From: a virus
Virus record (IMG/VR): IMGVR_UViG_3300003690_003399
Coordinates: 16,076 to 80,075 of that record
DNA length: 64,000 nucleotides
Strand: one strand, 5' to 3'
The notes below the pieces were generated by a model. It had not been told where the DNA came from, ran no database searches, and saw only the letters and a program-made list of their open reading frames with translations. Positions 8,381 through 22,312 of this stretch are shown here, one piece after another (the stretch's first letter is position 1; each line of letters starts with the position of its first letter). The position numbers and the translations under genes were made by a program.

Positions 8381-8381
8381 A

Positions 8382-9335
8382 ATGAAGCTTCGAGAAGTTT
8401 ATAAAGATCATGGAAGATTCAAGAAACAAGCAAAAAATTTACAAAAATGGATTCTGGAAAACTTTGCAAGCGAAAAACAGTATTCATTACTTATAGAGAA
8501 TATTTTCGATAAAGAATTTTTAAAAGCTTTTGATTATAAGAAAGTCAGTATTAATGAGATCCCCAAAATAAGTTTAATCACATCGGTTTTTAAGGCCGAT
8601 GATTATATTGAACAGCTAATGGAAGATGTCACTAGACAAACCATTTTTGAAGATAAATGTGAATGGATTATTTTAAATGCTAACGAAAAGGGTCACGATT
8701 ATGAAGAAAAAGTCATTCTTAAGTATGCAGAAAAATATCCTAATAACATAATTTACAAACGATTGGAAAAAGATCCGGGCGTTTATGATACTTGGAACAT
8801 GGCAATTGAAATGTCGACCGGCGAATATATTACAAATGTTAATTGCGATGATCGTCGACGACCGGATGGTCTAGAAGAACAAGCGAAATTGCTTACATAC
8901 AATTCAGATATTGATCTAGTTTATAATGATTCTTATATTGTACGCGAACCTAATATGAAGTGGGAAGACATAAGCCTAGAAACTTCAAGGTATAATTTCG
9001 ATCAGTTCTCTAAAGAAGCGATGTTAAGAGGCAACCTTCCTCATAACAATCCCATGTGGAGAAAATCTCTTCATCAAAAGAATGGCTTTTTTAATCAAAA
9101 ATATAGATCTGCCGCTGACTGGGATTTGTGGTTAAGATGTGCGTTTAATGGCGCCAAATATTTGAAACATCCTGAAATATTAGGAGTTTATTATTATAAT
9201 CCAACTGGGGTCTCCACCAATCCAGAGCACGATTCCTGGAAAAAAGAAGAGGAAAAAGAAATATGGACGGTATACCGTAAAAAACTGCAACAAGAAAAGG
9301 AAGACGAATCAACACCAGAGAGTATTATTTTATAA
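8382..9335 (+). CDS. Glycosyltransferase GT2, preceded by a likely GT4 C-terminal remnant
   Basis: PKISLITS, QT, N..I...GEYI..NCDD, DWDLWLR. Confidence 0.88.
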   Translation: MKLREVYKDHGRFKKQAKNLQKWILENFASEKQYSLLIENIFDKEFLKAFDYKKVSINEIPKISLITSVFKADDYIEQLMEDVTRQTIFEDKCEWIILNANEKGHDYEEKVILKYAEKYPNNIIYKRLEKDPGVYDTWNMAIEMSTGEYITNVNCDDRRRPDGLEEQAKLLTYNSDIDLVYNDSYIVREPNMKWEDISLETSRYNFDQFSKEAMLRGNLPHNNPMWRKSLHQKNGFFNQKYRSAADWDLWLRCAFNGAKYLKHPEILGVYYYNPTGVSTNPEHDSWKKEEEKEIWTVYRKKLQQEKEDESTPESIIL

Positions 9336-9337
9336 AA

Positions 9338-10132
9338 ATGGTTACGACTGTAAAAGATACCCAATTGAAAGCATTAAAGGATGTTGGTGCTTTTCTTAAA
9401 AACACAGATCAGAACAATCCACAGTTAGCTTCAACAATATGGAAGTATATTAACGATAACAATATCCAAACAGTCGTGTCACAAGCGGAATCTAATGATT
9501 ATAGTGAGAATTGGTCACAAGAACTGGTAGGAAAATTACAACGAATATTCGTTAATTACCAACTTCGACAGCTTAATTTGGGAAATCCCTCCCCGGTTTT
9601 TTTTAAACTAAAAGAAGCTTTAGATGTTCTACTGGATGAAAACCTTAGCTTGTCTTTGATCGATATTGGATGCACGAGTGGTTATTACTACGATGTTATT
9701 AACTTTTATTTTTCTAATAAATTCTATTATACGGGATGTGATTATAATAAAGAATCAATTGAATTGGCCAAAGAATATTATCCTACGATTAATTTTCAAG
9801 TCGAAGACATAACAGAACTAAGCTTTAAAGACCGTGAATTCGAAGTTTCTTTATTGGCGGGCGTTATTGAACATGTTCCACAGTATAAAAAGGGATTAAA
9901 AGAGCTATGCAGAATAACGGATAAATATATTGTTTTACACAGAATTTGGCTAACAGATGATGAGACTATTTGCAAAAAAGGAACACAATATTTTGTTCCT
10001 GTGATAAGAAACATGTATAATAAAGAAGATTTTTTTCATATTTTGAAAGAAAATAGTTTTACAGTTAAATGGAGTGGCGATGTTTATGACCAGAATTGTA
10101 GAACGTATATTTTAGAGAGAACAACTGAGTAG
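9338..10132 (+). CDS. Class I SAM-dependent methyltransferase
   Basis: LIDIGCTSG, YTGCD, FEV..GVIEHV. Confidence 0.88.
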   Translation: MVTTVKDTQLKALKDVGAFLKNTDQNNPQLASTIWKYINDNNIQTVVSQAESNDYSENWSQELVGKLQRIFVNYQLRQLNLGNPSPVFFKLKEALDVLLDENLSLSLIDIGCTSGYYYDVINFYFSNKFYYTGCDYNKESIELAKEYYPTINFQVEDITELSFKDREFEVSLLAGVIEHVPQYKKGLKELCRITDKYIVLHRIWLTDDETICKKGTQYFVPVIRNMYNKEDFFHILKENSFTVKWSGDVYDQNCRTYILERTTE

Positions 10133-10139
10133 GATTTTT

Positions 10140-10961
10140 ATGCTATTACCAGTAGCTTCTGTTGTAACTAATAAGACTATTTGCGAATTTGATTTACTTA
10201 AATTAAGCTTAGAACAATATCATGAGTGTAGCTGGGTCATTTCATGCGATGAAACGGCTTATCAAAAATACAATAATGTTGAAAATATTGAGTGTTTGAA
10301 GTTAATAGAAAGCGATGATTGCGATCATAATATAGCTTCAGAAGAACAGAAAGATAATTGGATGAAAGTCATGATGACCAAGTTTGATGCTGTTGAACGT
10401 TTAATCCTAAAGTTTAATCATGCTTTATTTTTAGATTCTGATATGATTTTTGTAAACCCCATTGAAGATAGAATATTAGAAATATTTAACAATGAAAATA
10501 TTGATGCGTGTATATGTCAACATATGACTAATGATTGGCAGAATGAAGCTCAACATGGATTATATAATGGTGGAATGTTTCATGTAAGAAGCAGTGATTT
10601 TATTGCTGAATGGAAAAGTCTATCTAAACAGTATAAAAAATATGGGTTTTATTTTGAACAGCAGCCTCTAGAATTTGTACAAAGAAATTTTAATTCTTTT
10701 AATCTCCCCATAAACTATAACATTGGGTGGTGGAGATTTAACAGGCCTAGCACTCAAAATAGATTGAATTTATTAAAGAATCTCGACGACAAGATATTTT
10801 TTGGCAACAAACCAGCAATTAATTTTCATGTGCATGCTTTACGTGAAATTGGATATCAAAACTTTGGTCAGTTTTTAGTTGAGAAAATTTGCAACTTATT
10901 AGATAACACATCTAATAAAAATTATAGGACGATTTTAGGGGTTATTAGAAATGGCGTTTGA
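10140..10961 (+). CDS. GT-A fold nucleotide-diphospho-sugar transferase
   Basis: LFLDSD (DxD), YNGG, EQ..L, YNIG, FH. Confidence 0.75.
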   Translation: MLLPVASVVTNKTICEFDLLKLSLEQYHECSWVISCDETAYQKYNNVENIECLKLIESDDCDHNIASEEQKDNWMKVMMTKFDAVERLILKFNHALFLDSDMIFVNPIEDRILEIFNNENIDACICQHMTNDWQNEAQHGLYNGGMFHVRSSDFIAEWKSLSKQYKKYGFYFEQQPLEFVQRNFNSFNLPINYNIGWWRFNRPSTQNRLNLLKNLDDKIFFGNKPAINFHVHALREIGYQNFGQFLVEKICNLLDNTSNKNYRTILGVIRNGV

Positions 10962-11574
10962 TTTGGTTGGAACAAATTATGGCGGTTGGATGATTGACAT
11001 TGATTTGATACCGCACCAAAGCGTCATTATTTCTGCCGGTGTGGGAGAGGATATAAGCTTTGATTTACAATTGATAAAAATGCGGAATTGCAAGATTATT
11101 GGTATTGATCCTACTCTCAAGAGTCATAGGTTTATAGAAAACCGAAAAAATCTTGATAACTTTAAGTTAATAAAGGGCGCCCTGCACCCTGCTGATGGTG
11201 ATGTTATCAAAATATACAAAACGAAGAGAAGTGACTATGTTTCAGAATCCATTTTACCAGATCATCAAAGCGTAAATAATTTTGATTCATATTTTTCAGA
11301 AACAATCAGCTTAAATAAAATCTTCGAAGAATATGAAGAGATTTCTGTTATCAAAATGGATATTGAAGGTTCTGAATACGGGGTAATACAGGCTTTAAAA
11401 TACATTCCTGATAGCGTTAAACAATTTTGTGTTGAATTCCATCATTTTTGCACCAGCAAAACCATTGAAGACACTAAAGAAATGATTAAAATGTTAGCAG
11501 AGTTAGGCTTCAAGAATTATGTCGAAAAGCCTTCTACCCAGCATTTAAACGAATTAACGTTTTGGAGGGGCTAA
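10951..11574 (+). CDS. FkbM-family methyltransferase
   Basis: YGGW, SAGVGEDISFD, IDPT, IKMDIEGSE, VEFH. Confidence 0.9.
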   Translation: MAFDLVGTNYGGWMIDIDLIPHQSVIISAGVGEDISFDLQLIKMRNCKIIGIDPTLKSHRFIENRKNLDNFKLIKGALHPADGDVIKIYKTKRSDYVSESILPDHQSVNNFDSYFSETISLNKIFEEYEEISVIKMDIEGSEYGVIQALKYIPDSVKQFCVEFHHFCTSKTIEDTKEMIKMLAELGFKNYVEKPSTQHLNELTFWRG

Positions 11575-12369
11575 ATGGATTATTTCACTGACACAAAGAA
11601 AAAAATTATTTATGATCCAATAGAAACCATCGAGGCCCTAAAAGAATTTCATAATTTATATGCTAAACGCCCCGTTAAAAATAATTCAGGAGGGATGCAG
11701 TCTCCTCATCTTTTTAATACTTGGTATGCATTAAAAAAACTAAAACCTAAATTAGTAATTGAGAGTGGGGTGTGGAAAGGCCTCGGAACGTGGGCGATAG
11801 AGAAGGCGCTTCCCAGCGCTCAAATAATTTCAATAGATGTTGATTATTCACATTTAGAATTTAAAAGTTCAAATGCGACTTATCTAGATAAAGATATTAA
11901 AACTCATAACTGGGATAAAGTATTCAATGAACAATATCCCGATATTAAGAGAAATGAAATTGTAGTTTTTTTAGATGATCATCAAGATTTTTTAGAGCGA
12001 TTAGAATTTATTTATAATTTGGGAATAAAGCATATCTTATATGAGGATAACTATCCTTCTTCACAAGGAGACGTTCTTTCTCCTAAGAAAATTTTATCTT
12101 GTCAAGATTATATAATGGAGAGAAGAGGTATCCCCCAAATGAATCAATTTTCATATTTTGATTATGATAAATTTGTAAATTTTGTCAAAACTTATGAAGA
12201 GCTGCCCCCCATTTTTAAACTAGATAAAACTCGATGGAAAGATAAATGGGATCCCCATACTTATCCTACGATAAAAGCTTTGTTACCTTTAGAAAAACAA
12301 AATGAATTTCCTATTTTTTTTGAAGAAGCATTATCATATACATGGCTATGTTATATGGAATTAAAATAA
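11575..12369 (+). CDS. Methyltransferase-fold protein
   Basis: P..VIESGVWKG, IISID, FLDDH. Confidence 0.6.
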   Translation: MDYFTDTKKKIIYDPIETIEALKEFHNLYAKRPVKNNSGGMQSPHLFNTWYALKKLKPKLVIESGVWKGLGTWAIEKALPSAQIISIDVDYSHLEFKSSNATYLDKDIKTHNWDKVFNEQYPDIKRNEIVVFLDDHQDFLERLEFIYNLGIKHILYEDNYPSSQGDVLSPKKILSCQDYIMERRGIPQMNQFSYFDYDKFVNFVKTYEELPPIFKLDKTRWKDKWDPHTYPTIKALLPLEKQNEFPIFFEEALSYTWLCYMELK

Positions 12370-12380
12370 GATACGATTAA

Positions 12381-13199
12381 ATGAACACGATTTACATAAT
12401 GAATTTTGATGACGTAAACGACCCTGTTAAAACCGAAGAAACTATCTTCAATCAATTATGGGAGCTTAAAGACACGATTAATACAGATTATGTGTATGTT
12501 GTTTTTCCGTGGGCATTTTCCATCAATCATCATGGCATTGTCCATACCCAGAAGCTTATTGATCAAATTTGTACTCAACACTGTGATAAAAAAATGTTTT
12601 TTGTTTGCCAACATATTTTAGTGAACAAATTAAACTTTCACGGTAATTTGGTCTTTACGCCGCATGCAACTATTTTAGATTCTTATGTGCCAATTCCACA
12701 TTATTCTTGCAATTATGAGTTAGAATTAGTTAAACCCTGGGATGAAAGAGAATATGAATTTAGCTTTATTGGATCTTTTCGTACACACCCTGTAAGGCAA
12801 AAGCTTTATGAATTTTTTAAAGCAAGGAAAGATTGCTTGATTGTTGATACCGGCTCTTGGCATTTTGAAGCATCCGAAAAGAAGCAAGAAATTAATGCAA
12901 GAAAGTACATTGAAATTTTAGGTAATACGAAATATTCGCTTTGCCCTAGAGGCACAGGACCATCTACTATTAGAATATGGGAGTCTATGGCAATGGGATC
13001 CTGTCCTGTGATTGTAAGTGACTATTTAAAAATGCCTTTAGAGCGTGAATTAGATTCTACAATGTGGTTAAGAGTACTGGAAAAGTGTGATAATATAAGG
13101 GATATAGATTTTTGCTTTGATAACGAAGAGTATTGGGAGTGGTTTTCTAATGAGAATTTGTATAGGTCGATTCTCAGCGCGCTAAGGGATAAAAAGTGA
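12381..13199 (+). CDS. Exostosin-family (GT47) glycosyltransferase
   Basis: FSFIGS..THPVR, YSLCPRG, RIWESM..G..PVIVSD. Confidence 0.85.
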   Translation: MNTIYIMNFDDVNDPVKTEETIFNQLWELKDTINTDYVYVVFPWAFSINHHGIVHTQKLIDQICTQHCDKKMFFVCQHILVNKLNFHGNLVFTPHATILDSYVPIPHYSCNYELELVKPWDEREYEFSFIGSFRTHPVRQKLYEFFKARKDCLIVDTGSWHFEASEKKQEINARKYIEILGNTKYSLCPRGTGPSTIRIWESMAMGSCPVIVSDYLKMPLERELDSTMWLRVLEKCDNIRDIDFCFDNEEYWEWFSNENLYRSILSALRDKK

Positions 13200-13885
13200 C
13201 AGAAATTTTAGTTATTGGAAACAAACCTTATACTAATCTATGTCTTAACAAGGTTGTTGATCGTTTTGATATAATTTATAGATTTAATCTTGCTTATCCC
13301 GGTAAAAATAATGGTACAAAATTTGGTAAGTTGGCAATGTGTCAACATGTGTACAATAATTTTGTAAAAAATCCTATTAGCAAGGAGCAAATAATACAAA
13401 TATATGGTCGAGAGCAGGAAGCAGTATTTGTAAGTGACTGGTATGATTTCTTTCAAGAAAATAAAGAAAACTTTGATGAGATATTTCATGAAAATGAACA
13501 CAATTGGGGGGAATGGAACAGGATGCTTGAAAAATATGGCAGTCCTCATAAATTTTCAAAAATGGCGTCAACAGGATATTCAGTTATTTTTAGAAATTTA
13601 GCAGCTGGCAATAGAGTATATGTTTCGGGCTTTACTTTATGTAATAATGAAATTAGAAAAACAATAGGAGAGAAAGATGAAGTTGTCAAAGCAAAAAATC
13701 AAGGGAAAACCTGTCACTCATTTTCTGACGAAAGTCGCATCTTAGCTTGGTTGCACAACAATAAAAAGATCGACGCAACATTGTGTATGTTAGATGACAC
13801 CGACGAACTTAGTCTAAAAATCAACGAATATAACACAGAACCTTCGGAGTTCATACTTAATTTATTAAATGGGAAAATATTATGA
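13196..13885 (+). CDS. GT29 sialyltransferase-like (CMP-sugar) transferase
   Basis: Sialylmotif-L-like ILVIGN..VDRFDIIYRFN, S-like STG..VYVSGF, VS-like HSFSDE; GTG start. Confidence 0.65.
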   Translation: MTEILVIGNKPYTNLCLNKVVDRFDIIYRFNLAYPGKNNGTKFGKLAMCQHVYNNFVKNPISKEQIIQIYGREQEAVFVSDWYDFFQENKENFDEIFHENEHNWGEWNRMLEKYGSPHKFSKMASTGYSVIFRNLAAGNRVYVSGFTLCNNEIRKTIGEKDEVVKAKNQGKTCHSFSDESRILAWLHNNKKIDATLCMLDDTDELSLKINEYNTEPSEFILNLLNGKIL

Positions 13886-14232
13886 AAATACAAGGTAAAG
13901 TGTGGGGAAAGACCCAAGATATATTTAAAAACTCTAATTTTGAGCTTCATAGAATCGAGGCCAGAAAAGGCGGGTTTTGCTCAAAGCACCAACATAAGCA
14001 TAAATATAATGCTTTTTTTGTTGAAAAAGGCAAGCTAAAGATAACAATATATGAAATTGATTATGATTTGGTCGATGAAACTATCATCTCCACAGGAGAG
14101 CTAACAATAGTTAAGCCTGGAGCCTACCACAGATTTGAGGCACTCGAAGATACAATTTGTTATGAAATCTATTGGGTAGAATTGGATCATGACGACATAG
14201 AAAGGGAAGACGTTGGCGGGAACATTAAATAA
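13882..14232 (+). CDS. Cupin-fold protein (sugar isomerase-like)
   Basis: KVWG, CSKHQH..K...F.V..G, PG.YHRF. Confidence 0.8.
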   Translation: MKIQGKVWGKTQDIFKNSNFELHRIEARKGGFCSKHQHKHKYNAFFVEKGKLKITIYEIDYDLVDETIISTGELTIVKPGAYHRFEALEDTICYEIYWVELDHDDIEREDVGGNIK

Positions 14233-14923
14233 AATAGGTATCATACCAGCGAGACTACACTCAACAAGGTTTCCTAAAAAAATATTAACAGATATAAATG
14301 GAAAGCCGATGGTGATATGCACAGCCGAACAAGCGTCTAAAGCTAAAAGTTTAGATAGAGTACTTATAGCTATTGATAGTGACGAAACATATCAAGCCTT
14401 AAAAGACTTTAATTATGAATTAGTAATGACATCAAACGAGCACAAGTCAGGAACAGATAGAATTGCAGAAGTGGTAAAGCGCATTAAAAGTATTGATATA
14501 GTTGTTAATATTCAAGCAGATGAGCCTTTTATCGACCCTACACTAATTGATAAACTAACAGAAGCCCATCTTGATTCAACTGTAGAAATGTCAACACTGG
14601 TCAGCACACAACTATCAACAAAAGACTATGATAATGAAAGCATTGTCAAAGCTTTTTTAAATGAAAATAATTTCGTAACAGACTTTAAAAGAAAATCTAG
14701 GGCGCGCCATAAGCATTTAGGCATATACGGTTTTACAAGAAAAACATTATTAGATTTTATATCATTTGAACAGACAGTCAACGAAAAAAACAGAAATCTA
14801 GAGCAAATGAGAGCGCTCGATAATGGGATTAAGATTAAAGCTGTGTTAACCAGTAAAGATTCTTTATCTATTAACACATTAAATGATCTTTTATATGTTT
14901 ATAAAAAGGGCAATACGCGATGA
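14213..14923 (+). CDS. kdsB: CMP-Kdo synthetase (3-deoxy-manno-octulosonate cytidylyltransferase)
   Basis: IIPARLHSTRFPKK, GKPMV, SGTDRIAE, NIQADEP, HLGIYG, LEQMRAL; TTG start uncertain. Confidence 0.9.
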   Translation: MAGTLNKIGIIPARLHSTRFPKKILTDINGKPMVICTAEQASKAKSLDRVLIAIDSDETYQALKDFNYELVMTSNEHKSGTDRIAEVVKRIKSIDIVVNIQADEPFIDPTLIDKLTEAHLDSTVEMSTLVSTQLSTKDYDNESIVKAFLNENNFVTDFKRKSRARHKHLGIYGFTRKTLLDFISFEQTVNEKNRNLEQMRALDNGIKIKAVLTSKDSLSINTLNDLLYVYKKGNTR

Positions 14924-15831
14924 AACCCTTAGATATATCTAAAAAGTCTATGAAAAAAGGAATGAAAGACAACATAGAAAGGAAGCAGCCTTCTATAAAC
15001 GATGTCGTTAGACACAAAGGTCTCCCCTTGTTCAGCTTTATTGAATTAAATATAAATGAAATTTGTAATAGAGTATGTCCTTTTTGCCCAAGAGTGGATC
15101 CAAAAATATATCCTAATCAAAATATCCACATGGATATGGAAATAGTGGAAAAAATAGCTGAACAACTTAAAGAATTGAATTTTACTGGTATTGTGAATAT
15201 AAGCGGTACCGGGGAACCGCTACTAACCAAATATATCACTGATATTATAAATGAATTTGGAAAACGAGGAATTCATATTGAAATAGTGACCAATGGTGAT
15301 GTACTGCAAAGCCGGAAAGGGCCAGAGTTAATCAAAAATTTATATGCAGCAGGATTGCAACAGTTTGTAGTTAGCATGTATGACGGCCCTGAGCAAATAG
15401 AATCATTTAATACGTTATTTGCTAGTTGTGGTATAGATGAAAGCTTATACTCCTTAAGGGATAGGTGGTACGATGAATCAGAGGATTATGGGCTCCTGTA
15501 TACAAATAGAGCCGGTAACATAGGGTTTGAACATTTATCGGACATAGCTAAAGAAAAGTTAATAAATTCAGGCAAGTCGGCTTGTTTTTATACACATTAT
15601 TCTATGATGATTGATTGGAATGGTGATGCGTTATTGTGCTGCCAAGACATGTATAATCGTACAGTAAAATTTGGAAATGTTAAAAACAAATCTCTTATCG
15701 ATATATGGAGAGATACAAAACTAATGGAATTTAGAAATAAACTTAAAAATGGGGAGAGGTCATCATCACCCTGTAATAATTGCAATGCAAATGGTCAAAT
15801 ATTTGGAAGCAATCATGTAAAAGCATGGTAG
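14920..15831 (+). CDS. Radical SAM enzyme with SPASM/twitch domain
   Basis: CNRVCPFC, GEPLL, TNG, NRAG, C-terminal C..IDWNG...CC and CxxC. Confidence 0.92.
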   Translation: MKPLDISKKSMKKGMKDNIERKQPSINDVVRHKGLPLFSFIELNINEICNRVCPFCPRVDPKIYPNQNIHMDMEIVEKIAEQLKELNFTGIVNISGTGEPLLTKYITDIINEFGKRGIHIEIVTNGDVLQSRKGPELIKNLYAAGLQQFVVSMYDGPEQIESFNTLFASCGIDESLYSLRDRWYDESEDYGLLYTNRAGNIGFEHLSDIAKEKLINSGKSACFYTHYSMMIDWNGDALLCCQDMYNRTVKFGNVKNKSLIDIWRDTKLMEFRNKLKNGERSSSPCNNCNANGQIFGSNHVKAW

Positions 15832-15839
15832 GTCGAAAA

Positions 15840-16487
15840 ATGAATTATATTTTTAAACCAAATGGAGACAAACTAGAGTTTGTTGGCGATTTTGAGGCAC
15901 TTTATCAAAATGACAACGACCCGTGGAATCAGTCAGGAAAAGATGGAGAAATAAGCTATTACTATGCTCATAGCAGAAAGAGGCTGGTCGATCAGCTAAA
16001 GAAAATCAATCCCGACTCTTTGCTTGAAACCGGATGCGATTTGGGCTATACTACCAAGATCATTCAGAAATCTTTACCAGATTGCAATGTTGTTGGCATG
16101 GATATTAGTAGAACGGCAATAGTGAAGGCTGTAAACTTATTCCCTAATTTGGACTTCATAACTGAAGATATTGGTAGCGCAAACTTTAATTCAGATACAA
16201 AATATGATGTAGTTATTCTAAATCAATTGTTGTGGTATGTCTTAGAATCGCTTTCCGAGACATTTGAAAATTGTTTTTCTATACTAAATCCAAATGGTAG
16301 GATAATAATCAGCCAAGCATTTTTACAGGCACCACAGAAATACGGGAAAGATATTTGTGATGGGTTTGATGGGTTAATCAGTTACTTGAGCGACCACAAG
16401 TTTAATATAGAATATTCTCAATTAGATAATTCTAATTCTTTTGTCCATAATGATGGGCTGATCATATTAAAAAAGCATGATAGTTAA
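15840..16487 (+). CDS. Class I SAM-dependent methyltransferase (start revised from 15780)
   Basis: DPW, LETGCDLG, GMDIS, YDVV, LNPNG. Confidence 0.82.
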   Translation: MNYIFKPNGDKLEFVGDFEALYQNDNDPWNQSGKDGEISYYYAHSRKRLVDQLKKINPDSLLETGCDLGYTTKIIQKSLPDCNVVGMDISRTAIVKAVNLFPNLDFITEDIGSANFNSDTKYDVVILNQLLWYVLESLSETFENCFSILNPNGRIIISQAFLQAPQKYGKDICDGFDGLISYLSDHKFNIEYSQLDNSNSFVHNDGLIILKKHDS

Positions 16488-17604
16488 AAAAGCCTATAAA
16501 TGTTATATTGAAAATGATAAAGGTGTCAAGCTAATTGACACCTCAATGGGGTCAGGTGTCCAAATAATAGGACACAACAACCCGTTGATTAAAGAAATGG
16601 GCAAGCAGATAGAAAGAGGAACTATTTATACAATTCCCAACTGCCACACAGGTAAGGTAAATTCTTATTTGAAAGAACACATAAACCCCGATCTTGATGA
16701 GCAATACATATTCTGTAATTCGGGTACGGAAGCTAACATGAGGGCTATAAGATTAGCCCGTGCATACACAGGCAAAAATTTAGTTGGCAGATTCCATGGC
16801 GGCTGGCACGGCGGACTAGATGGTTTCCTAGAAGAACACCCCGACAACAAGGGTATACCTTCAGAGACTGATAGCTTGTTTAGGGTCTTGCCCTACAATG
16901 ATGATCAGTGTTTCGAGAAGATTACTCATGATATGGCTGCTGTAATAACAGAGCCCGTGCAGGGATCTAATCCTAGATCTGACGTTAAACAGTTTCTGCA
17001 AAAATTAAGAGCCCATTGCACCAAGACGGGAGTATTGTTAATATTTGATGAAGTTCTGACGGGATTTAGATTATCCGCAAAGGGTGCCGCTGGTGTTTTT
17101 AATGTGATGCCCGATATAGTAACTTATGGGAAAGTTTTAGGAGGAGGATTCCCAATTGGAGCGGTTGGCGCCAAGTCAGAAATTATAAAAACAAAAAATG
17201 TTTTTTATGGAGGAACTTTTTCTGCGAATCCATTAAGCATGTATGCCGCTATCCTAATTCTTGAAACTATAATTGATACAAAGTACATTCAATACGATAA
17301 GCTAAATTATGCTGGAAAGCTATTTAGAGGTGAATTAAATAAGTTTTTTATTGCGGAAGATAAAAAAATGAGAGTAATAGGCTGCGGCGCAGTCAATAGA
17401 ATTATCTTTACAGATAAATTTATCAAAAATAGAAAAGATAGAGATAACTTTGAGCCTAAAAATGCACAAGAAATGTTTTCTAATAAACTAAAAGAACTGG
17501 GTGTGTTTATTAATGGAAATGGACTATATCATTTTTCTATGAGTCATACACCAGAGGTTATTAAAGAACTTATTAATATAATCAAACTAGCGAGCAAAAC
17601 ATGA
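16477..17604 (+). CDS. Class III PLP aminotransferase (GSA-aminomutase-like)
   Basis: NSGTEA, ARAYTG, WHG, EPVQG, IFDEVLTGFR, TYGK (PLP Lys), GTFSANP. Confidence 0.9.
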   Translation: MIVKKAYKCYIENDKGVKLIDTSMGSGVQIIGHNNPLIKEMGKQIERGTIYTIPNCHTGKVNSYLKEHINPDLDEQYIFCNSGTEANMRAIRLARAYTGKNLVGRFHGGWHGGLDGFLEEHPDNKGIPSETDSLFRVLPYNDDQCFEKITHDMAAVITEPVQGSNPRSDVKQFLQKLRAHCTKTGVLLIFDEVLTGFRLSAKGAAGVFNVMPDIVTYGKVLGGGFPIGAVGAKSEIIKTKNVFYGGTFSANPLSMYAAILILETIIDTKYIQYDKLNYAGKLFRGELNKFFIAEDKKMRVIGCGAVNRIIFTDKFIKNRKDRDNFEPKNAQEMFSNKLKELGVFINGNGLYHFSMSHTPEVIKELINIIKLASKT

Positions 17605-18410
17605 AGATTGAAAAGTGCTGCAAAGAGGATATATTTAAATGTATAGACCTACAGGAAAATGATGTTATCTTATATTTGGGGGGAAGAATTGACGATGACG
17701 CCCTATACCCGCCGGGATACAGAGAATATTTAAAGGCTAAAATAAAAAAGTTGAAGCCAACTAAAATAATTTGTCACAACCACTGGTATGCTAAGAAATA
17801 TTATGAGAAGGGAATCTTAACCAAGCATACTAAAATAGATATGGTATTAGTTTGTTACCACCATCTTAGAAACGGTAATTTCCCATCAATTGATCCTGCG
17901 GATTATATCGATCATCGCACCTACATGAAGACATTGATAGATAAGAATCCTAGCATAGTCTATGCAATATATATAAGCCAGGGAAACAAGCCCCCCTCGG
18001 TGGATGTTAACGATGGTTGGTTTAGAGAAGATTACGATCTAAATAATGCTAAATACTTCTCTTTCGATAGAACATATTCTCCCAAGGATTTAACGGATGA
18101 GGAACTGGGTCATGGAGGACGAACAAGAAATGCTAGTGATGGGTTTGCTATGGTTGCCAATTTGGTGAAGGCGGGTTTTAAGAATATAAATATACTTGGA
18201 TTTTCTGCATTTGGATCCGATGAAGACATGTCTTATCATACTGCGTATAAGTCAGGAGACCGTAGGCTCTTCGGTCGAAAATACTTCAATCTTGGTACCT
18301 CGGAAGATCAACCAGCAGAAGCAGATATATTGCAATTTTGGGTAAAAACTAAAAAGATAAAGAACGTGGAAGATTATAGTAAATTGATGTTTCACTTAAA
18401 GGAGAAATAA
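17601..18410 (+). CDS. Hypothetical protein, possible second CMP-sugar transferase
   Basis: SDG....GFKNINILGF resembles the GT29/GT42 S-type motif; weak. Confidence 0.4.
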   Translation: MKIEKCCKEDIFKCIDLQENDVILYLGGRIDDDALYPPGYREYLKAKIKKLKPTKIICHNHWYAKKYYEKGILTKHTKIDMVLVCYHHLRNGNFPSIDPADYIDHRTYMKTLIDKNPSIVYAIYISQGNKPPSVDVNDGWFREDYDLNNAKYFSFDRTYSPKDLTDEELGHGGRTRNASDGFAMVANLVKAGFKNINILGFSAFGSDEDMSYHTAYKSGDRRLFGRKYFNLGTSEDQPAEADILQFWVKTKKIKNVEDYSKLMFHLKEK

Positions 18411-18412
18411 AT

Positions 18413-19123
18413 ATGGTAGACAAAAAAAAAAGAGAGGAGTATAACAAATCTTTGGAGTACAACGGACAAGCGTTGGCAGACAAATTTGTTTTAAATTGCA
18501 CAGGTTTTAAGAGGGGTGGTTACTTTTTAGAACTAGGATCTAGGGAGTTTAAACGGAACAACAACTCTTATATTTTAGAGAAAAGTTTTGGATGGAAAGG
18601 TGTGATGGTCGAAAAGGTCGCTACACACAAAGGAGACTATAAATCCAATAGACCGAACAGCATACCTATCATCCAAGACGCCACTCAAATAAACTATAAA
18701 AAAGTATTTGAGGATAATAATTTTCCGTCTAATTTGGATTTTTGGCAATTAGATTTAGAGGTGAGAGACAATACCGCTTTAGATACCTTAATAAAGATTA
18801 ACGAAGAAATACTGGGTTATTATAGTTTTGCAACAGTAACAATGGAACACGATATTTATAATGGTCTGCAAAATTCTGTCAATACTCGAATTAAATCAAG
18901 AGAGATTTTAGAGAGCAGAGGTTACTACTGTGTGTTTAGAGATACTATGACTTTCATGGACGGTCCGCCGAACTCTCCCTACGAAGATTGGTGGGTCCAT
19001 CCAGACTTAGTTAATATGGAATATATAAAATCCCTTCAGGAAAGAAATCAAGATAATTATTCATTAATTAATGTAAAGGGAAGAAATATAGAGTGTTTCA
19101 ACTCTGATCTGATAGAATATTAA
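18413..19123 (+). CDS. FkbM-like methyltransferase
   Basis: GYFLELGS, NNSY.LE..GWKG..VE, LDLE, EHD, EDWWVHP. Confidence 0.8.
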   Translation: MVDKKKREEYNKSLEYNGQALADKFVLNCTGFKRGGYFLELGSREFKRNNNSYILEKSFGWKGVMVEKVATHKGDYKSNRPNSIPIIQDATQINYKKVFEDNNFPSNLDFWQLDLEVRDNTALDTLIKINEEILGYYSFATVTMEHDIYNGLQNSVNTRIKSREILESRGYYCVFRDTMTFMDGPPNSPYEDWWVHPDLVNMEYIKSLQERNQDNYSLINVKGRNIECFNSDLIEY

Positions 19124-19138
19124 ATAGAGGGTAATAAA

Positions 19139-19831
19139 ATGCAACCAACCATAAAAGACCTTTTCGATAAAATTCAGAATGCAGAAGTTCAGACTGAACC
19201 GTTTGATCATCTGGTTGTAGATAATTTATTACCTGATGATTTTTTTAAAGAGCTAGCTAAAGAATTAGAGGCTGAGGACTTTCCTAGCAATTATGTAAGG
19301 GGGCCTTACGGAAATAAAGAACGCTTTGGGGTAGATTTAACAGATTATTCTGCTTGGAAAACCTCTGGAAAGAATCTTCCCATAAAGATCCACGAGGGTA
19401 ATTACAAATCATTATCATCGGGAAAGAGTGCCAATGTTCAATTCTTTGTTGACCTTCTTTTGGAAAATGAAAAGGGCTTTTATTCTTTACTTGGCTCTAA
19501 ACTGCCTACTGAGAGATTTCAAGATAACTATTTTTTTCATGTAAATATGACCAAAGATAGCGTAGGCTACACAATAGAAGCCCACACAGACGATAAAGAG
19601 AACATTTTTACTATTCTTTTCTACACTCCAGAGACAGATGTAAATAAAGAGTTCGGACTACATGTCTGTAAAGAAAAAATAGATTTTATGCCTAATAGAA
19701 TGATCATTTTTGCTCCCTCTAAACCACACAGCGAGAGGACACCCACTTGGCATGAAGTAAAGCGCTTATCAGATAAATTAATTGGAACGAGAAATTCGTT
19801 CCAAATGTTTTTTTTAAGAAATAATAGCTAA
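19139..19831 (+). CDS. 2OG-Fe(II) oxygenase
   Basis: PFDHLVVDNLL, HTD, WH.V, R.S. Confidence 0.82.
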   Translation: MQPTIKDLFDKIQNAEVQTEPFDHLVVDNLLPDDFFKELAKELEAEDFPSNYVRGPYGNKERFGVDLTDYSAWKTSGKNLPIKIHEGNYKSLSSGKSANVQFFVDLLLENEKGFYSLLGSKLPTERFQDNYFFHVNMTKDSVGYTIEAHTDDKENIFTILFYTPETDVNKEFGLHVCKEKIDFMPNRMIIFAPSKPHSERTPTWHEVKRLSDKLIGTRNSFQMFFLRNNS

Positions 19832-19835
19832 GGAT

Positions 19836-20606
19836 ATGATAAATACTAAATTCATAATAGCTGGACCATGTGTGTTAGAATCAAAAGATATGTGTCTAGA
19901 AATAGCAAAATATTGTAAATCTATTTGTGATGAATACGGCTTTACATATGTTTTTAAAGCTTCGTTTGATAAAGCAAACAGGACTTCAATAAATTCATTT
20001 AGAGGCCCCGGATTGAAGAAATCAATAGATACATTCGTTGAAATAAGAAAGCATGTAGACTTCATAACTACCGATATACACGAACCTTATCAGGCAAAAG
20101 AAATTGCTCCATATGTAGATGTAATACAAATACCTGCTTTCCTTTGTAGACAAACAGATCTGCTAGTTGCAGCAGGAGAGACTGGTAAAATTGTTAATAT
20201 TAAAAAAGCCCAATTTTTATCTGTTGATAAGATGGAGCACGCAATTAAAAAAATCTATCATACTGGTAACAAAAATGTGATGTTGACAGAACGAGGTTCC
20301 ATGCTGGGCACGGACGATTTAGTGGTTGACTTCAGGAATATACATAAATTAAAACAATTTGGCTGTCCAGTTATTATGGATGTTACGCATGCTTGTCAAA
20401 CATATAAGCAAACAAATGGTATAACTGGCGGGAATAGAATTTATGGTCCACTCTTTGCTCAGTGTGCTAAAATATTTGGTGCTGATGGCACCTTCGCAGA
20501 GGTCCACCCAAAACCAGAGGCAGCATTGAGTGATTCTGCAAATACTATGAATTTTAATATGTTTGAGAACATGGTAAAAGCATTAGCAACATTGGAGGAT
20601 GATTAA
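19836..20606 (+). CDS. kdsA: KDO-8-phosphate synthase, metal-dependent type
   Basis: AGPCVLE (Cys ligand), KASFDKANRTS, QIPAFLCRQT, NIKK, ERG, DVTH, EVHP..ALSD. Confidence 0.96.
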   Translation: MINTKFIIAGPCVLESKDMCLEIAKYCKSICDEYGFTYVFKASFDKANRTSINSFRGPGLKKSIDTFVEIRKHVDFITTDIHEPYQAKEIAPYVDVIQIPAFLCRQTDLLVAAGETGKIVNIKKAQFLSVDKMEHAIKKIYHTGNKNVMLTERGSMLGTDDLVVDFRNIHKLKQFGCPVIMDVTHACQTYKQTNGITGGNRIYGPLFAQCAKIFGADGTFAEVHPKPEAALSDSANTMNFNMFENMVKALATLEDD

Positions 20607-20926
20607 TGATTTATTACGTTGATATTGACGAAACAATTTGTGATTATGAAGGCGGCGATAAATACGCCGCAAGGGATTATGAGAACGCTAGACCAATAAA
20701 AGAAAACATTCAGAAAATAAATGATCTATTTGATGAAGGGCATACAGTGGTTTATTGGACAGCCAGAGGTAGTACCACTGGAATTGATTGGTATGATCTT
20801 ACTGGCCGCCAACTAAAAGAGTGGGGTGCTAAGCACCATAACTACAAGGTTGGAAAGCCTGCTTATGATGTTTTTATATGTGACAAAGCAATAAATTCTG
20901 AAGTTTTTTTTAAGGAAGGAGAATAG
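20606..20926 (+). CDS. Small capless HAD phosphatase
   Basis: VDIDETIC (DxD), WTARG, GKP..D...DK. Confidence 0.85.
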   Translation: MIYYVDIDETICDYEGGDKYAARDYENARPIKENIQKINDLFDEGHTVVYWTARGSTTGIDWYDLTGRQLKEWGAKHHNYKVGKPAYDVFICDKAINSEVFFKEGE

Positions 20927-20927
20927 A

Positions 20928-21479
20928 ATGAAAGAATACAATAACACTGATCGAACTGCTAGCTTAGAAAGACTCGCACCGGATTTGTTCAAATATAAAT
21001 CGGTTTTGAATATAGGCGCCCGCACTAGTCGATTTAATTATGGACAAGAATTTAGAGAAGCGGGGTATAATATTACGGTTTTGGAGCCGTTTAAACCAAA
21101 TGTAGAATATTTGCGTACATTACTGTGGATACATGAAGTTATTCAAGGAGACGTTCGTGATTTGAAAGTTTTTAAGGAAAGAGAGCAAAAATTTGATGTT
21201 GTTTTCTGGTGGCATGGCCCCGAGCATGTGATAGAAGAAGATATGATAAAGGTTATACCCGAACTAGAAAAAATTTGTAATCATCTGGTTGTGTTGGGGT
21301 GTCCATGGGGACATTGCCCGCAAGGCGAGATTCATAATAATCCATGGGAAAAGCACATTGGGCACTATTCATATTATGTGTTCGAAGAATTTGGTTATGA
21401 TGTTGAATGCTTGGGCCTACAGAGCGTCGCAGGATCTAACATTACAAGCGTGAAGAGAATAGACGGGAGAAAAAAATGA
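20928..21479 (+). CDS. Class I methyltransferase-like protein
   Basis: VLNIGA, GDV, FDVV...GPEH. Confidence 0.7.
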   Translation: MKEYNNTDRTASLERLAPDLFKYKSVLNIGARTSRFNYGQEFREAGYNITVLEPFKPNVEYLRTLLWIHEVIQGDVRDLKVFKEREQKFDVVFWWHGPEHVIEEDMIKVIPELEKICNHLVVLGCPWGHCPQGEIHNNPWEKHIGHYSYYVFEEFGYDVECLGLQSVAGSNITSVKRIDGRKK

Positions 21480-22312
21480 AAGTTGGAATTGTTGGTCAAG
21501 GATTTGTAGGACAAGCTCTTAAAAAAGGTTTTGAAAAATATTTTCATATTGAAACTTATGATAAGTTTAAGAAGAAAGAATCAAGTTGCTTAAGTTTAGA
21601 AGAGCTAACATCTAAAACAAAGATAATTTTTATTTGCGTGCCCACCCCAATGAACAAAGATGGTACGTGTAATTTAAATATAGTTAATGAAGTCGTACGG
21701 AACATTGATTTTTGTAATAATAAAAATGTTGTCGTAATCAAATCTACCATCCCACCAAACACCACCGCTATGTTAAACGCTGAGTGTAATAATATACAAG
21801 TTATTTTTAACCCAGAATTTTTAACAGAAGCTAACTTTATTGAAGATTTCAAAAATCAAACTAGAATTATTATTGGCGGTCCGCGCCCAGGTTCAACACT
21901 GGTTAAAAATTTATACAGAAAAGCATTTCCTGAGACGCCATTGATTAAAACTAGTTCAACAATTGCAGAAATGGTTAAGTATTTTACTAACTGTTTTTTA
22001 GCCACAAAAGTTAGTTTTTCTAATGAAATTAAACAAATATGTGAAAAAATTGATATAGATTATGATAAAATAGTAGAGTACGCTTTATATGATAGCCGAT
22101 TGGGGAAAACGCACTTCTCAGCTCCGGGCCCAGACGGAAAAAGTGGGTTTGGTGGATCCTGTTTTCCTAAAGATTTAAATGCGCTAATTAAAACGGCTGA
22201 AAATTTAGATATAGATCCTAAAGTTTTAAAATCAGTCTGGGAAAAGAATCTTGAAGTAAGACCAGAGAAAGACTGGGAAAAATTAAAAGGAAGAGCCGTA
22301 AGCGAATCATGA
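21476..22312 (+). CDS. UDP-glucose/GDP-mannose dehydrogenase family, short form lacking the C-terminal domain
   Basis: GQGFVG, CVPTP, IKSTIPP, NPEFL, AEMVKY..N, GFGGSCFPKD. Confidence 0.92.
   Translation: MKVGIVGQGFVGQALKKGFEKYFHIETYDKFKKKESSCLSLEELTSKTKIIFICVPTPMNKDGTCNLNIVNEVVRNIDFCNNKNVVVIKSTIPPNTTAMLNAECNNIQVIFNPEFLTEANFIEDFKNQTRIIIGGPRPGSTLVKNLYRKAFPETPLIKTSSTIAEMVKYFTNCFLATKVSFSNEIKQICEKIDIDYDKIVEYALYDSRLGKTHFSAPGPDGKSGFGGSCFPKDLNALIKTAENLDIDPKVLKSVWEKNLEVRPEKDWEKLKGRAVSES

Follow-up and report, generated by a model that had tools for sequence, protein, structure and literature searches.

Which sugar acid does a phage make, and what transfers it, when genes for CMP-Kdo synthesis lie in one stretch with genes for proteins that resemble GT29 sialyltransferases? 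The window, a stretch of 64,000 nucleotides, is part of an 80,075-bp record (CheckV completeness ~45%) from an uncultured marine T4-like myovirus, and the segment discussed here forms the centre of a phage glycan island of 16 kb. All the parts that a sequence-only reading had listed were found where it placed them, on the + strand. Eleven genes between positions 13196 and 20926, all on the + strand, overlap by 1-52 nt or are separated by gaps of no more than 15 nt; they therefore form one operon. On balance we lean towards a reading in which this operon supplies CMP-Kdo by way of a cupin and a mini-HAD phosphatase, tailors it to an amino sugar, and transfers it by a pair of GT29-like proteins.

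The synthase and the synthetase of the pathway were assigned with curated models. KdsA (Kdo-8-phosphate synthase; 19836..20606, +) scored 325.3 bits against NF003543 (cut-off 242) and matched Pfam DAHP_synth_1 with an E value of 4e-58; against TIGR01362 it fell just under the cut-off (313.3 versus 314 bits). KdsB (CMP-Kdo synthetase; 14213..14923, +) scored 221.2 bits against NF003952 (cut-off 193) and 155.3 bits against TIGR00466 (cut-off 155.2), and matched CTP_transf_3 (E 1e-39). By these profile scores both are true members of their families, and the near-complete CMP-Kdo pathway proposed earlier is borne out by these two enzymes.

The last gene of the operon (20606..20926, +) encodes a cap-less mini-HAD phosphatase of 106 aa, in which the DxDxT motif is visible. 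Its start overlaps the kdsA stop by 1 nt, and it is translationally coupled to kdsA. The protein matches phrog_1238 (E 1e-25), and its closest solved relative is 9iqw, a 'capsule biosynthesis protein' and capsule sugar-phosphate phosphatase (E 1e-10). It follows KdsA in the window and in two further loci (L016 and L017); of 51 viral KdsA records, only 8, one of them the window's, contain a strong match. Membership of the KdsC family was rejected: the KdsC model TIGR01670 matched nothing in this record and nothing in the 50 other viral KdsA records. The earlier assignment of a KdsC role to this gene stands as to a phosphatase gene beside kdsA, a candidate for that role, and fails as to KdsC family membership.

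The isomerase step is where the cupin enters. It was proposed earlier that the window lacks kdsD and that the cupin might take its place; the SIS domain of KdsD (PF01380) is in fact absent from the whole 80,075-bp record, although, because this record is only ~45% complete, KdsD could sit in the missing half. The cupin (13882..14232, +) is a small metal cupin of 116 aa, with invariant residues H36, H38, and H83. At the sequence level it is just a generic Cupin_2 protein (30 bits), slightly below the cut-off for MannoseP_isomer (21.4 bits), and it belongs to a viral family with minor PMI and lyxose-isomerase labels. Among 80 viral KdsA loci, a cupin homolog occurs in 55, on the same strand in every case, adjoining KdsA or KdsB in 28 loci and lying within 1.5 kb in 46. 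A SIS isomerase was found in just three of the 80, all three cupin-less. The SIS gene directly adjoins KdsA in each, upstream in two loci, in the slot where cupin-KdsA loci have the cupin, and immediately downstream in the third. The mutual exclusion of cupin and SIS has a P of ~0.03, for loci that are not independent of one another. Three phage genomes that are 100% complete and carry cupin and KdsA have no SIS gene. These patterns make the cupin a good and well-supported candidate for a non-orthologous arabinose-5-phosphate isomerase in the KdsD role; we found no paper describing a cupin in place of KdsD or GmhA.

The same cupin could instead be a tailoring enzyme, an epimerase or keto-isomerase of the FdtA/WbuC/Cap5F kind that works with the radical-SAM dehydrogenase and the aminotransferase described below, with arabinose-5-phosphate coming from a host KdsD. 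In five loci, cupins 80-91% identical to that of the window are placed between the genes for the GT29-like protein and the radical SAM enzyme, and the three KdsA-less records among these that were searched whole contain no KdsA; the isomerase role is harder to explain in such loci. The cupin also weakly matches WbuC (24 bits) as well as the cupin domain of Cap5F, and FdtA-type cupins are found with distant relatives of the GT29-like protein. A further point against the isomerase reading is that distant cupin homologs of cyanophages are located in heptose-type clusters. However, most KdsA-linked cupins (e.g., in L031 and L035-L040) are paired with KdsA alone, with no gene nearby that is closely homologous to the radical SAM enzyme or the aminotransferase, the FdtA cupins (in L010 and L012) fall into another Pfam family, and the exclusion between cupin and SIS, which directly adjoins KdsA where it is found, also speaks against a tailoring role. 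We regard the tailoring role as unlikely, and retain the cupin as the candidate KdsD substitute. The operon very probably directs synthesis of Kdo, a bacterial sugar acid, with the cupin and the mini-phosphatase replacing two standard enzymes.

The first gene of the operon (13196..13885, +) encodes a soluble, compact protein of 229 aa without a transmembrane segment, here called ST1, a candidate inverting transferase of a CMP-ulosonic acid (Kdo or amino-Kdo). Its AlphaFold (AF2) model (pLDDT 93) is predicted to have the GT-A variant fold of sialyltransferases: all of the top 23 matching chains belong to sialyltransferases, and another fold first appears at Z 6.0. Matches to GT29 enzymes score Z 8.2-10.8, the best being ST6GalNAc2 (VIA Z 10.8, rmsd 3.2, 166 aligned residues), whereas GT42 enzymes score Z 7-8.3; the Foldseek probability is 1.00. 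At the sequence level, ST1 has no match in Pfam (E<=0.01), NCBIfam, or PHROG, including the Glyco_transf_29 profile, and a sequence profile search of the PDB found no sialyltransferase. The link to Glyco_transf_29 (PF00777) is transitive only, through 5 of 55 diverse relatives that match the profile (best E 4.4e-6). In the sequence, conserved motifs resemble the L (GNK..D..D..R.N) and S (STGYS...VSGF) sialylmotifs, and a conserved H174-x4-E179 has the spacing of the catalytic His in motif VS; neither sialylmotif III nor the cysteine pair of the L-S disulfide was recognised at this level. H174, N31, and D193 are invariant in the 55 relatives.

A second soluble protein of the same predicted fold, ST2 (269 aa; 17601..18410, +), is divergent, and its profile similarity to ST1 is weak (hhalign E 1.4e-3). 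Its AF2 model (pLDDT 94.7) has VIA Z 10.2 to ST6GalNAc2 and to ST8SiaIII, and its top 13 matches are all GT29 (Z 9.1-10.2). The position aligned with H174 of ST1 is T or E, and across 32 homologs no His is invariant in the C-terminal part. ST2 occurs in just three other viral loci, each time together with ST1. The sequence-only reading had called ST1 a GT29-like transferase, to which the model comparison agrees, and ST2 a possible second CMP-sugar transferase, for which the GT29-type fold is recovered and the C-terminal His of ST1 is missing. The models thus support ST1 and ST2 as sialyltransferase-fold proteins, both nearest to GT29 and with GT42 scoring lower. We found no paper describing phage GT29-like cassettes.

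Besides ST2, five genes lie between kdsB and kdsA: a radical SAM enzyme, a methyltransferase, an aminotransferase, a protein without assigned function, and a 2OG-oxygenase-like protein. The sequence-only reading was silent on these five. The radical SAM enzyme (14920..15831, +) carries Radical_SAM and SPASM domains and a CxxxCxxC motif (CNRVCPFC). Its sole significant solved relative is BtrN (4m7t; E 6e-22 over residues 36-289, about 250 residues), and with a radical SAM core, a SPASM domain, and BtrN homology it is assigned, by sequence, to the BtrN type, as a candidate O2-independent sugar alcohol dehydrogenase. The class I SAM methyltransferase that follows (15780..16487, +; Methyltransf_12/31/23, E 1e-11 to 4e-13) is a putative tailoring enzyme; translation probably begins at a later ATG near 15828, and the gene is kept in related loci L006, L008, and L024. 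The class III (HemL-like) PLP aminotransferase (16477..17604, +; Aminotran_3, E 4e-49) falls below every HemL cut-off, and its PDB matches include GSA aminomutases and the gentamicin C-6' aminotransferase. Copies 69-81% identical follow the radical SAM gene in eight related loci, always in this order, and the protein is a candidate aminating partner of the dehydrogenase. The protein at 18413..19123 (+; 236 aa) is conserved, with homologs 50-59% identical in the same cassette of related loci L004 and L006; searches of Pfam, NCBIfam, and PHROG gave no match, and no function is assigned. The 2OG-Fe(II) oxygenase-like protein (19139..19831, +) is a lead only: the nearest Atlas clusters are so named (score 0.94), an HxD...H pattern is visible, and phrog_274 matches (E 3e-10), whereas a PDB sequence search gave no match. 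The tailoring genes suggest an aminated or methylated Kdo.

Does ST1 then depend on the Kdo genes beside it? The ST1 family occurs in just 1 of the 50 other viral KdsA records. In six related loci, ST1 relatives are accompanied by the radical SAM enzyme and the aminotransferase, and in five of these the cupin is present too; the records of four of the six, one of which is 86% complete, were searched whole and contain no KdsA and no clear KdsB. ST1 therefore needs no phage Kdo genes, its donor is not fixed by context, and the donor of ST1 and ST2 may be host CMP-Kdo, modified Kdo, or another CMP-sugar. Of the viral Kdo-transferase system proposed earlier, the CMP-Kdo supply line holds, while Kdo transfer by the GT29-like proteins is not established; a GT29-Kdo pairing is plausible for this phage, but not general. 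Likewise, that the GT29-like gene appears instead of WaaA is true and not special: neither WaaA (GT30, PF04413) nor KpsC/KpsS (GT107, PF05159) has a match in the 80-kb record, and among the 50 other viral KdsA records WaaA was found in none and KpsC/S exceeded the cut-off in none. The data support CMP-Kdo supply by the phage without a canonical KdsD, KdsC, or WaaA.

These distributions also bear on the possibility that the two sets of genes are functionally separate, with KdsA, KdsB, the cupin, and the HAD phosphatase acting as auxiliary metabolic genes that top up host CMP-Kdo for the host's own LPS or capsule, and ST1 and ST2 transferring a different CMP-sugar (either a nonulosonic acid from the host or some amino acid-sugar to which the radical SAM enzyme and the aminotransferase contribute). 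The rarity of ST1 among KdsA records and its cassettes without KdsA and KdsB would fit such a division. Distant ST1 relatives moreover adjoin an HMGL-like aldolase and a non-KdsB cytidylyltransferase, so that the donors of the family differ by lineage. However, in the window and in L006 the genes for ST1, cupin, KdsB, radical SAM enzyme, aminotransferase, ST2, and KdsA are interspersed with one another within a single operon of overlapping genes, and the window's record has no second cytidylyltransferase and no further sugar-acid synthase (NeuB). As indirect evidence for a CMP-activated donor, a CTP_transf_3 cytidylyltransferase lies 0.5-7 kb from ST1 relatives in 6 of 12 records; NeuB is absent from all 12. 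CMP-Kdo is the sole CMP-sugar supplied by any Gram-negative host, which would explain the relatives without Kdo genes. We consider a functional separation rather unlikely. GT29-type transfer of Kdo has a possible precedent, in that the plant GT29 protein RCKT1 is a putative CMP-beta-Kdo transferase (PMC11288761), and Kdo is also transferred by Lst and Maf (PMC8092323, PMC11339370).

The upstream half of the island (6105..13199, +) encodes, by Pfam, two GT4, one GT2, one Nucleotid_trans, and one GT47/exostosin-like glycosyltransferase, with two recognised methyltransferases and one unknown protein, all soluble in a hydropathy scan. The island ends (20928..22312, +) with Pfam matches to a methyltransferase-like protein and a short UDP-glucose/GDP-mannose dehydrogenase homolog. 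The island totals seven transferases and about six methyltransferases; genes for a membrane component, a flippase, or a polymerase are lacking.

T4-like phages glycosylate their DNA, some by way of an arabinose-5-phosphate isomerase (PMC13326640), and the island might accordingly decorate phage DNA through sugar hypermodification rather than a glycan or protein. But no thymidylate-synthase-like hydroxymethylase was found in the record, the number of transferases and methyltransferases far exceeds the needs of any known DNA modification, and DNA arabinosylation, where known, relies on a SIS isomerase and NDP-sugars rather than on KdsA and KdsB (PMC13326640). We consider DNA decoration very improbable. 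The T4-like baseplate and gp55-like genes of this phage, and the hosts of its nearest isolates (Microcystis and Flavobacterium), make a Gram-negative host likely, as the sequence-only reading had it; its argument from the Kdo genes does not hold as proof because giant viruses of protists also carry them (PMC9614988).

In the favoured reading, the cupin would convert ribulose-5-P to arabinose-5-P in place of the SIS enzyme KdsD. KdsA, by its family assignment, would form Kdo-8-P from arabinose-5-P and PEP, the kdsA-coupled mini-HAD would release Kdo in place of KdsC, and KdsB, again by its family, would produce CMP-Kdo. The BtrN-like dehydrogenase would oxidise one sugar hydroxyl and the class III aminotransferase would turn the carbonyl into an amine; the methyltransferase and the 2OG-oxygenase-like protein may decorate the product further. 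ST1 and ST2 would then transfer the CMP-activated acid with inversion onto a glycan built by the island's five other soluble transferases. With neither a flippase nor a polymerase nor any membrane component in the island, this acceptor would be either a host glycolipid that faces the cytoplasm or a protein of the phage virion. Kdo is probably turned into an amino sugar and then attached by two compact enzymes resembling animal sialyltransferases.

The bacterial KdsD-KdsA-KdsC-KdsB pathway with WaaA (GT30) shares KdsA, KdsB, and the proposed four-step chemistry with the phage, which, however, lacks the SIS KdsD, KdsC (TIGR01670), and WaaA, and has a cupin, a cap-less mini-HAD, and GT29-like-fold candidate transferases instead. 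In butirosin synthesis (BtrN/BtrS), as proposed here, an alcohol dehydrogenase is followed by a PLP aminotransferase (hydroxyl to carbonyl to amine), and the phage radical SAM enzyme is a sequence relative of BtrN. KdnB and KdnA, which form Kdo8N in Shewanella, likewise convert a sugar hydroxyl to an amine by a dehydrogenase and then a PLP aminotransferase. The phage aminotransferase is of class III (HemL-like), not of the BtrS/KdnA type.

The giant viruses CroV and Fadolivirus also encode a Kdo pathway in a larger glycan island with several glycosyltransferases and methyltransferases (PMC9614988), and the fold neighbours of ST1 include one from Fadolivirus; these viruses have retained the canonical SIS isomerase and a phosphatase of the KdsC type, both within fusion proteins, whereas the phage would replace both. 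Cyanophage S-SCSM2R (PMC12801897) and a TARA viral genome (PMC5332604) are marine and T4-like, with kdsA in both and kdsB in S-SCSM2R among cell-wall genes (KdsA 45% identical in this comparison), but S-SCSM2R has no homolog of ST1 or ST2, and its cupin, with 29% identity, is encoded at a distance of 11 kb. Campylobacter Cst-I/Cst-II (GT42) and the Maf flagellin glycosyltransferases are small bacterial enzymes with the same GT-A variant fold that use CMP-ulosonic acids, and Maf can transfer Kdo onto protein Ser/Thr (PMC11339370); no Pfam link to ST1 was found, and their structural scores (GT42 as above, Maf Z 5.5-6.5) are below those of GT29. The plant protein RCKT1/MGP2 of rhamnogalacturonan II (PMC11288761) is a Golgi membrane protein and a clear GT29 sequence member, whereas ST1 is a soluble core linked to that family through its relatives. 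The two share a GT29-type fold found with a Kdo pathway, and inverting transfer from CMP-beta-Kdo would be expected.

Every part named in the sequence-only reading (kdsA, a HAD protein, kdsB, the two predicted GT29-like transferases, and the cupin) was found in the window. KdsA (19836-20606) matched NF003543 with 325 bits (cut-off 242), and KdsB (14213-14923) matched NF003952 with 221 bits (cut-off 193). The kdsA stop codon overlaps by one base with the gene for a minimal HAD protein of 106 aa (20606-20926), which carries a DxDxT motif, falls into phrog_1238 (E 1e-25), and has as its best solved relative a 134-aa 'capsule biosynthesis protein' (9iqw, E 1e-10). This mini-HAD does not belong to the KdsC family, as the KdsC model had no match in the record. 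KdsA contains an N-terminal AGPC motif, which we take to be the mark of the metal-dependent Kdo-8-P synthases (Aquifex type), not of the E. coli type. Two names used in PHROG and GenBank look wrong: the members of phrog_1238, labelled 'phosphoheptose isomerase', are mini-HAD phosphatases, and those of phrog_7851, labelled 'cysteine dioxygenase', are small cupins.

No SIS domain, KdsC, WaaA, or KpsC/S was found in the whole 80-kb record. The earlier observation that the window contains no kdsD was therefore borne out, and the absence of the SIS domain extends to the entire record, itself 45% complete as estimated by CheckV. Likewise, the 50 viral KdsA records searched (from loci L016-L095) contained no KdsC, WaaA, or KpsC/S above cut-off. 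The candidate for the missing arabinose-5-P isomerase is the small cupin encoded at 13882.

KdsA homologs were present in at least 148 viral stretches, and 80 of these loci were examined. A homolog of the cupin (45-91% identity to that of the window) was present in 55 of the 80, always on the same strand as KdsA. It abuts KdsA or KdsB in 28 loci and lies at most 1.5 kb away in 46; the usual gene orders are cupin-KdsA and cupin-KdsB-KdsA. SIS domains were detected in only three of the 80 KdsA records, all of them cupin-less. In all three the SIS gene abuts KdsA: in two it is located upstream, the slot that the cupin occupies in loci such as L036, and in the third just downstream. The probability that all three SIS loci would fall among the 25 cupin-less ones by chance is about 0.03, a figure that is only indicative, since many of the loci are related. 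Three complete phage genomes with cupin and KdsA contain no SIS gene. A pairing with KdsA only would be expected of an enzyme making the KdsA substrate.

Conservation in the cupin family is strong: several basic residues are invariant, and H36, H38, and H83 probably bind the metal. The family is purely viral in the Atlas, where a minority of labels read mannose-6-P isomerase or lyxose isomerase. Aldose-ketose isomerisation is established cupin chemistry, as in phosphomannose isomerase and the cupin-type phosphoglucose isomerase. The proposal of a KdsD-like role is supported by the linkage in 55 of the 80 loci and by the confinement of SIS domains to cupin-less loci; however, the sequence is that of a generic Cupin_2 protein, and close copies of the cupin are also present in KdsA-less cassettes around the first transferase. 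Sequence and profile searches against the PDB retrieved generic cupins only (E of at least 0.01) and gave no functional resolution. Cyanophage homologs with about 30% identity are found in heptose-type clusters, beside the same mini-HAD, which would suit a wider function of the cupin in phages, as a sugar-phosphate isomerase. In Synechococcus phage S-CAM1 (L099:4682-5342), the cupin and mini-HAD genes are adjacent and lie beside heptose nucleotidyltransferase and epimerase genes, an arrangement that suggests that cupin and HAD also work as a pair in phage heptose synthesis.

The putative transferases ST1 (13196) and ST2 (17601) had no match in Pfam, NCBIfam, or PHROG, and single-sequence and profile searches of the PDB retrieved no sialyltransferase; their sialyltransferase kinship is seen only in the folds and in distant family members. 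The structures were predicted with pLDDT 93 for ST1 (34 metagenomic homologs aligned) and 94.7 for ST2 (32 homologs). The 23 best structural matches of the ST1 model were all sialyltransferases, with GT29 first (Z 8.2-10.8; for ST6GalNAc2, Z 10.8 and rmsd 3.2 over 166 residues), Campylobacter GT42 second (Z 7-8.3), and the next fold at only Z 6.0. The 13 best matches of the ST2 model were GT29 enzymes (Z 9.1-10.2). The anticipated GT29 affinity was thereby confirmed for both models, GT29 leading GT42, and ST1 has the sialyltransferase fold.

Homologs of ST1 keep an N-terminal GNK...D..D..R.N, a central STGYS...VSGF, and a C-terminal H174-x4-E179, which resemble sialylmotifs L, S, and VS. An HMM scan of 1.84 billion cluster representatives recovered 243 relatives. 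A set of 55 diverse relatives (20-40% identity) shares just three invariant residues, N31, H174, and D193; five of the 55 gave a direct match to Pfam Glyco_transf_29, with E 4.4e-6 at best, and no member matched a GT42 family. The neighbours of ST1 among predicted viral structures are giant-virus proteins of about 220 aa, one already labelled GT29 and one from Fadolivirus, a giant virus known for its Kdo genes (PMC9614988). ST1 has no TM segment, and its model identifies it as a stripped-down, soluble member of a GT29-like superfamily, itself outside Pfam GT29. ST2 shares the predicted fold; the match between the two in hhalign was weak (probability 18%, E 1.4e-3), which excludes them as close paralogs. 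ST2 lacks the conserved C-terminal histidine, and its predicted transferase activity is less certain than that of ST1. In 11 of the 55 diverse ST1 relatives (P0202, P0213, P0214, and others; 410-515 aa) a PhyH-type 2OG dioxygenase domain is fused to the transferase, which hints that hydroxylation may be coupled to transfer.

The neighbourhoods of the ST1 relatives, annotated from ORF calls and Pfam, are mixed. A tblastn search with ST1 and ST2 against isolate phages (50,697 records) had no match, and no cultured phage has them. Fourteen viral loci contained ST1 relatives; KdsA and KdsB were both present in a single one of these, L006, which is fully syntenic with the window. In six others (L001-L005 and L008) the ST1 relative is accompanied by the radical SAM and aminotransferase genes, in five of the six by the cupin, and in L003 and L008 also by an ST2 homolog. 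The fetched stretches of these six contain neither KdsA nor KdsB. The records of L001, L003, L004, and L008, one of them 86% complete, were searched whole and yielded no KdsA, with a weak cytidylyltransferase match in one. A CTP_transf_3 cytidylyltransferase is encoded 0.5-7 kb from the transferase in six of 12 records with ST1 relatives; NeuB is absent from all 12. The expected pairing of a GT29-like transferase with Kdo genes is present in the window and L006, but the ST1-family profile found a member in only one of 50 other viral KdsA records. Kdo is the sole CMP-activated ulosonic acid for which genes are present here, and the tie of an ST1-type transferase to Kdo genes is confined to the lineage of the window.

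Distant relatives of ST1 (32-60% identity) in L007:10672-12279, L010:11123-12710, and L012:12019-13630 lie beside an HMGL-like aldolase, likely a pyruvate aldolase, and a CTP_transf_3 cytidylyltransferase. In L007 aldolase and cytidylyltransferase form one fusion; in L010 and L012 an SDR follows, and an FdtA cupin and a DegT aminotransferase are encoded upstream. The juxtaposition of aldolase and cytidylyltransferase points to another 2-keto-3-deoxy acid, and in these loci a separate CMP-(2-keto-3-deoxy)-acid pathway, so far undescribed, seems to supply the same transferase family. Given the mixed neighbourhoods, the ST1 family looks like one of CMP-ulosonic-acid transferases whose donor varies by lineage. 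Phages with ST1 but without Kdo genes could, we infer, use the CMP-Kdo of the host, a compound made by all Gram-negative cells. Among 185,579 GTDB species genomes, the only ST1 relative was on a 9.4-kb contig in a Promethearchaeota MAG bin (L015:3932-4582), where cellular context is absent; another relative (L013:1809-2474) is in a giant-virus MAG bin. Both contigs may be mis-binned phage DNA.

Four of the genes between kdsB and kdsA read as a tailoring set. The radical SAM/SPASM protein (14920) had a single significant solved relative, BtrN (E 6e-22, about 250 residues), the radical-SAM dehydrogenase of the butirosin pathway, which turns a hydroxyl into a ketone ahead of transamination. Downstream of the radical SAM gene, in the window (16477) and in eight related loci, lies a class III aminotransferase gene; 16477 is also similar to gentamicin C-6' aminotransferase. 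Its identification as a HemL tetrapyrrole auxiliary gene was rejected, because it falls well short of the HemL cut-offs and invariably accompanies the radical SAM gene. Together with the methyltransferase (15780) and a probable 2OG oxygenase (19139), the pair would convert a sugar hydroxyl to a possibly methylated amine. By BLAST, 19139 is not similar to the PhyH domains that some ST1 relatives carry. Locus L024 has the order cupin-KdsB-radical SAM-aminotransferase-methyltransferase-HAD; ST1 is absent there and KdsA lies 3 kb upstream, so that the tailoring pair, too, is linked to Kdo genes. By analogy to Shewanella Kdo8N, our preferred guess for the product is an amino-Kdo. BtrN-like radical SAM proteins 27-29% identical to 14920 are also encoded by the T4-like Campylobacter phages CP20, CPt10, and CJLB-12 (hits H43-H48).

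The source record is an IMG/VR viral contig of 80,075 bp, of which the window comprises bases 16076-80075; all genes are on the plus strand, and the window contains no tRNA genes. A gp6-like baseplate wedge, PhoH, and a late sigma factor that is gp55-like by PHROG identify the phage as a T4-like myovirus. It is distant from every isolate: the wedge protein has at most 32% identity to Microcystis phage Mel-JY01 and the Flavobacterium 'immuto' phages, and neither megablast with the region nor tblastn with the 1444-aa protein gave a match among 50,697 phage records. The stretch was present in full in one sequencing run only, a hydrothermal vent metagenome that is probably its source, and in small shares in seawater runs; no RNA data set was among the runs containing it. 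Outside the island discussed below, a 233-aa protein (4311-5012) weakly matches an ATLF zinc-metallopeptidase-like domain (26.6 bits, just below the cut-off of 27.4).

The Kdo genes are part of a low-GC island (6105-22312; 0.32-0.36, versus 0.38-0.44 in the structural genes) that is dense in glycan genes by Pfam and lies directly upstream of the late-factor gene and very large virion genes. Two of the island's transferases (10140-10961 and 12381-13199) come from families that are usually seen in plants and algae, Nucleotid_trans (PF03407) and an exostosin/GT47-like domain whose C-terminal match is to RXYLT1. A 278-aa homolog of UDP-glucose/GDP-mannose dehydrogenases (21476-22312) has a partial N-terminal and a central domain and no C-terminal domain match. 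DNA hypermodification was considered as the role of the island and rejected. No island protein has a TM segment, and the island encodes no flippase, polymerase, or polyprenyl-phosphate transferase. Its seven transferase-like proteins must work in the cytoplasm, with host lipid-linked intermediates or phage proteins as their targets.

The sequence-only interpretation is thus partly upheld: the absence of SIS, KdsC, and WaaA, the GT29-like folds, and the cupin linkage speak for it, but the tie between transferase and Kdo is limited to one lineage. In the most far-reaching reading, the large, exclusively viral family of cupins of about 115 aa would be a structurally new type of arabinose-5-phosphate isomerase, or perhaps of sugar-phosphate isomerase more broadly, and would have taken the place of the SIS enzyme in the majority of Kdo modules in phages; the compact, soluble GT29-like enzymes would be phage transferases for Kdo or a new amino-Kdo; and the amino-Kdo would arise by an oxygen-independent radical-SAM/class III aminotransferase route and coat the host surface or the virion. 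The combination is tentative, and we consider it doubtful that all three claims hold together.

Kdo synthesis is usually viewed as a fixed four-enzyme pathway and an antibiotic target. If the cupin does act in the KdsD role, the first committed step would have gained a new class of enzyme, and the seeming gaps in dozens of phage Kdo modules would be accounted for. To our knowledge, very little work has been done on GT29-type enzymes beyond those of eukaryotes and eukaryotic viruses; phage GT29-like transferases for Kdo or amino-Kdo, if real, would connect the making of RG-II in plants with animal sialylation and phage glycobiology, and would be small soluble catalysts for glyco-engineering. 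The tailoring pair suggests an oxygen-independent amino-sugar route in marine and vent phages, and the choice between host-surface remodelling and virion glycosylation bears on superinfection and recognition in large marine phages.

The literature searched contained no report of a cupin that acts as arabinose-5-P isomerase or of a mini-HAD that acts as Kdo-8-P phosphatase, nor of a Kdo operon with phage GT29-like transferases or with the BtrN-like/class III aminotransferase pair. Viral Kdo genes as such are already known, from CroV and Fadolivirus (PMC9614988), a TARA viral genome (PMC5332604), and cyanophage S-SCSM2R (PMC12801897). Kdo transfer is possible by gonococcal Lst and clostridial Maf (PMC8092323, PMC11339370), and GT29 Kdo transferases have already been proposed in plants, where RCKT1 is a putative CMP-beta-Kdo transferase (PMC11288761).
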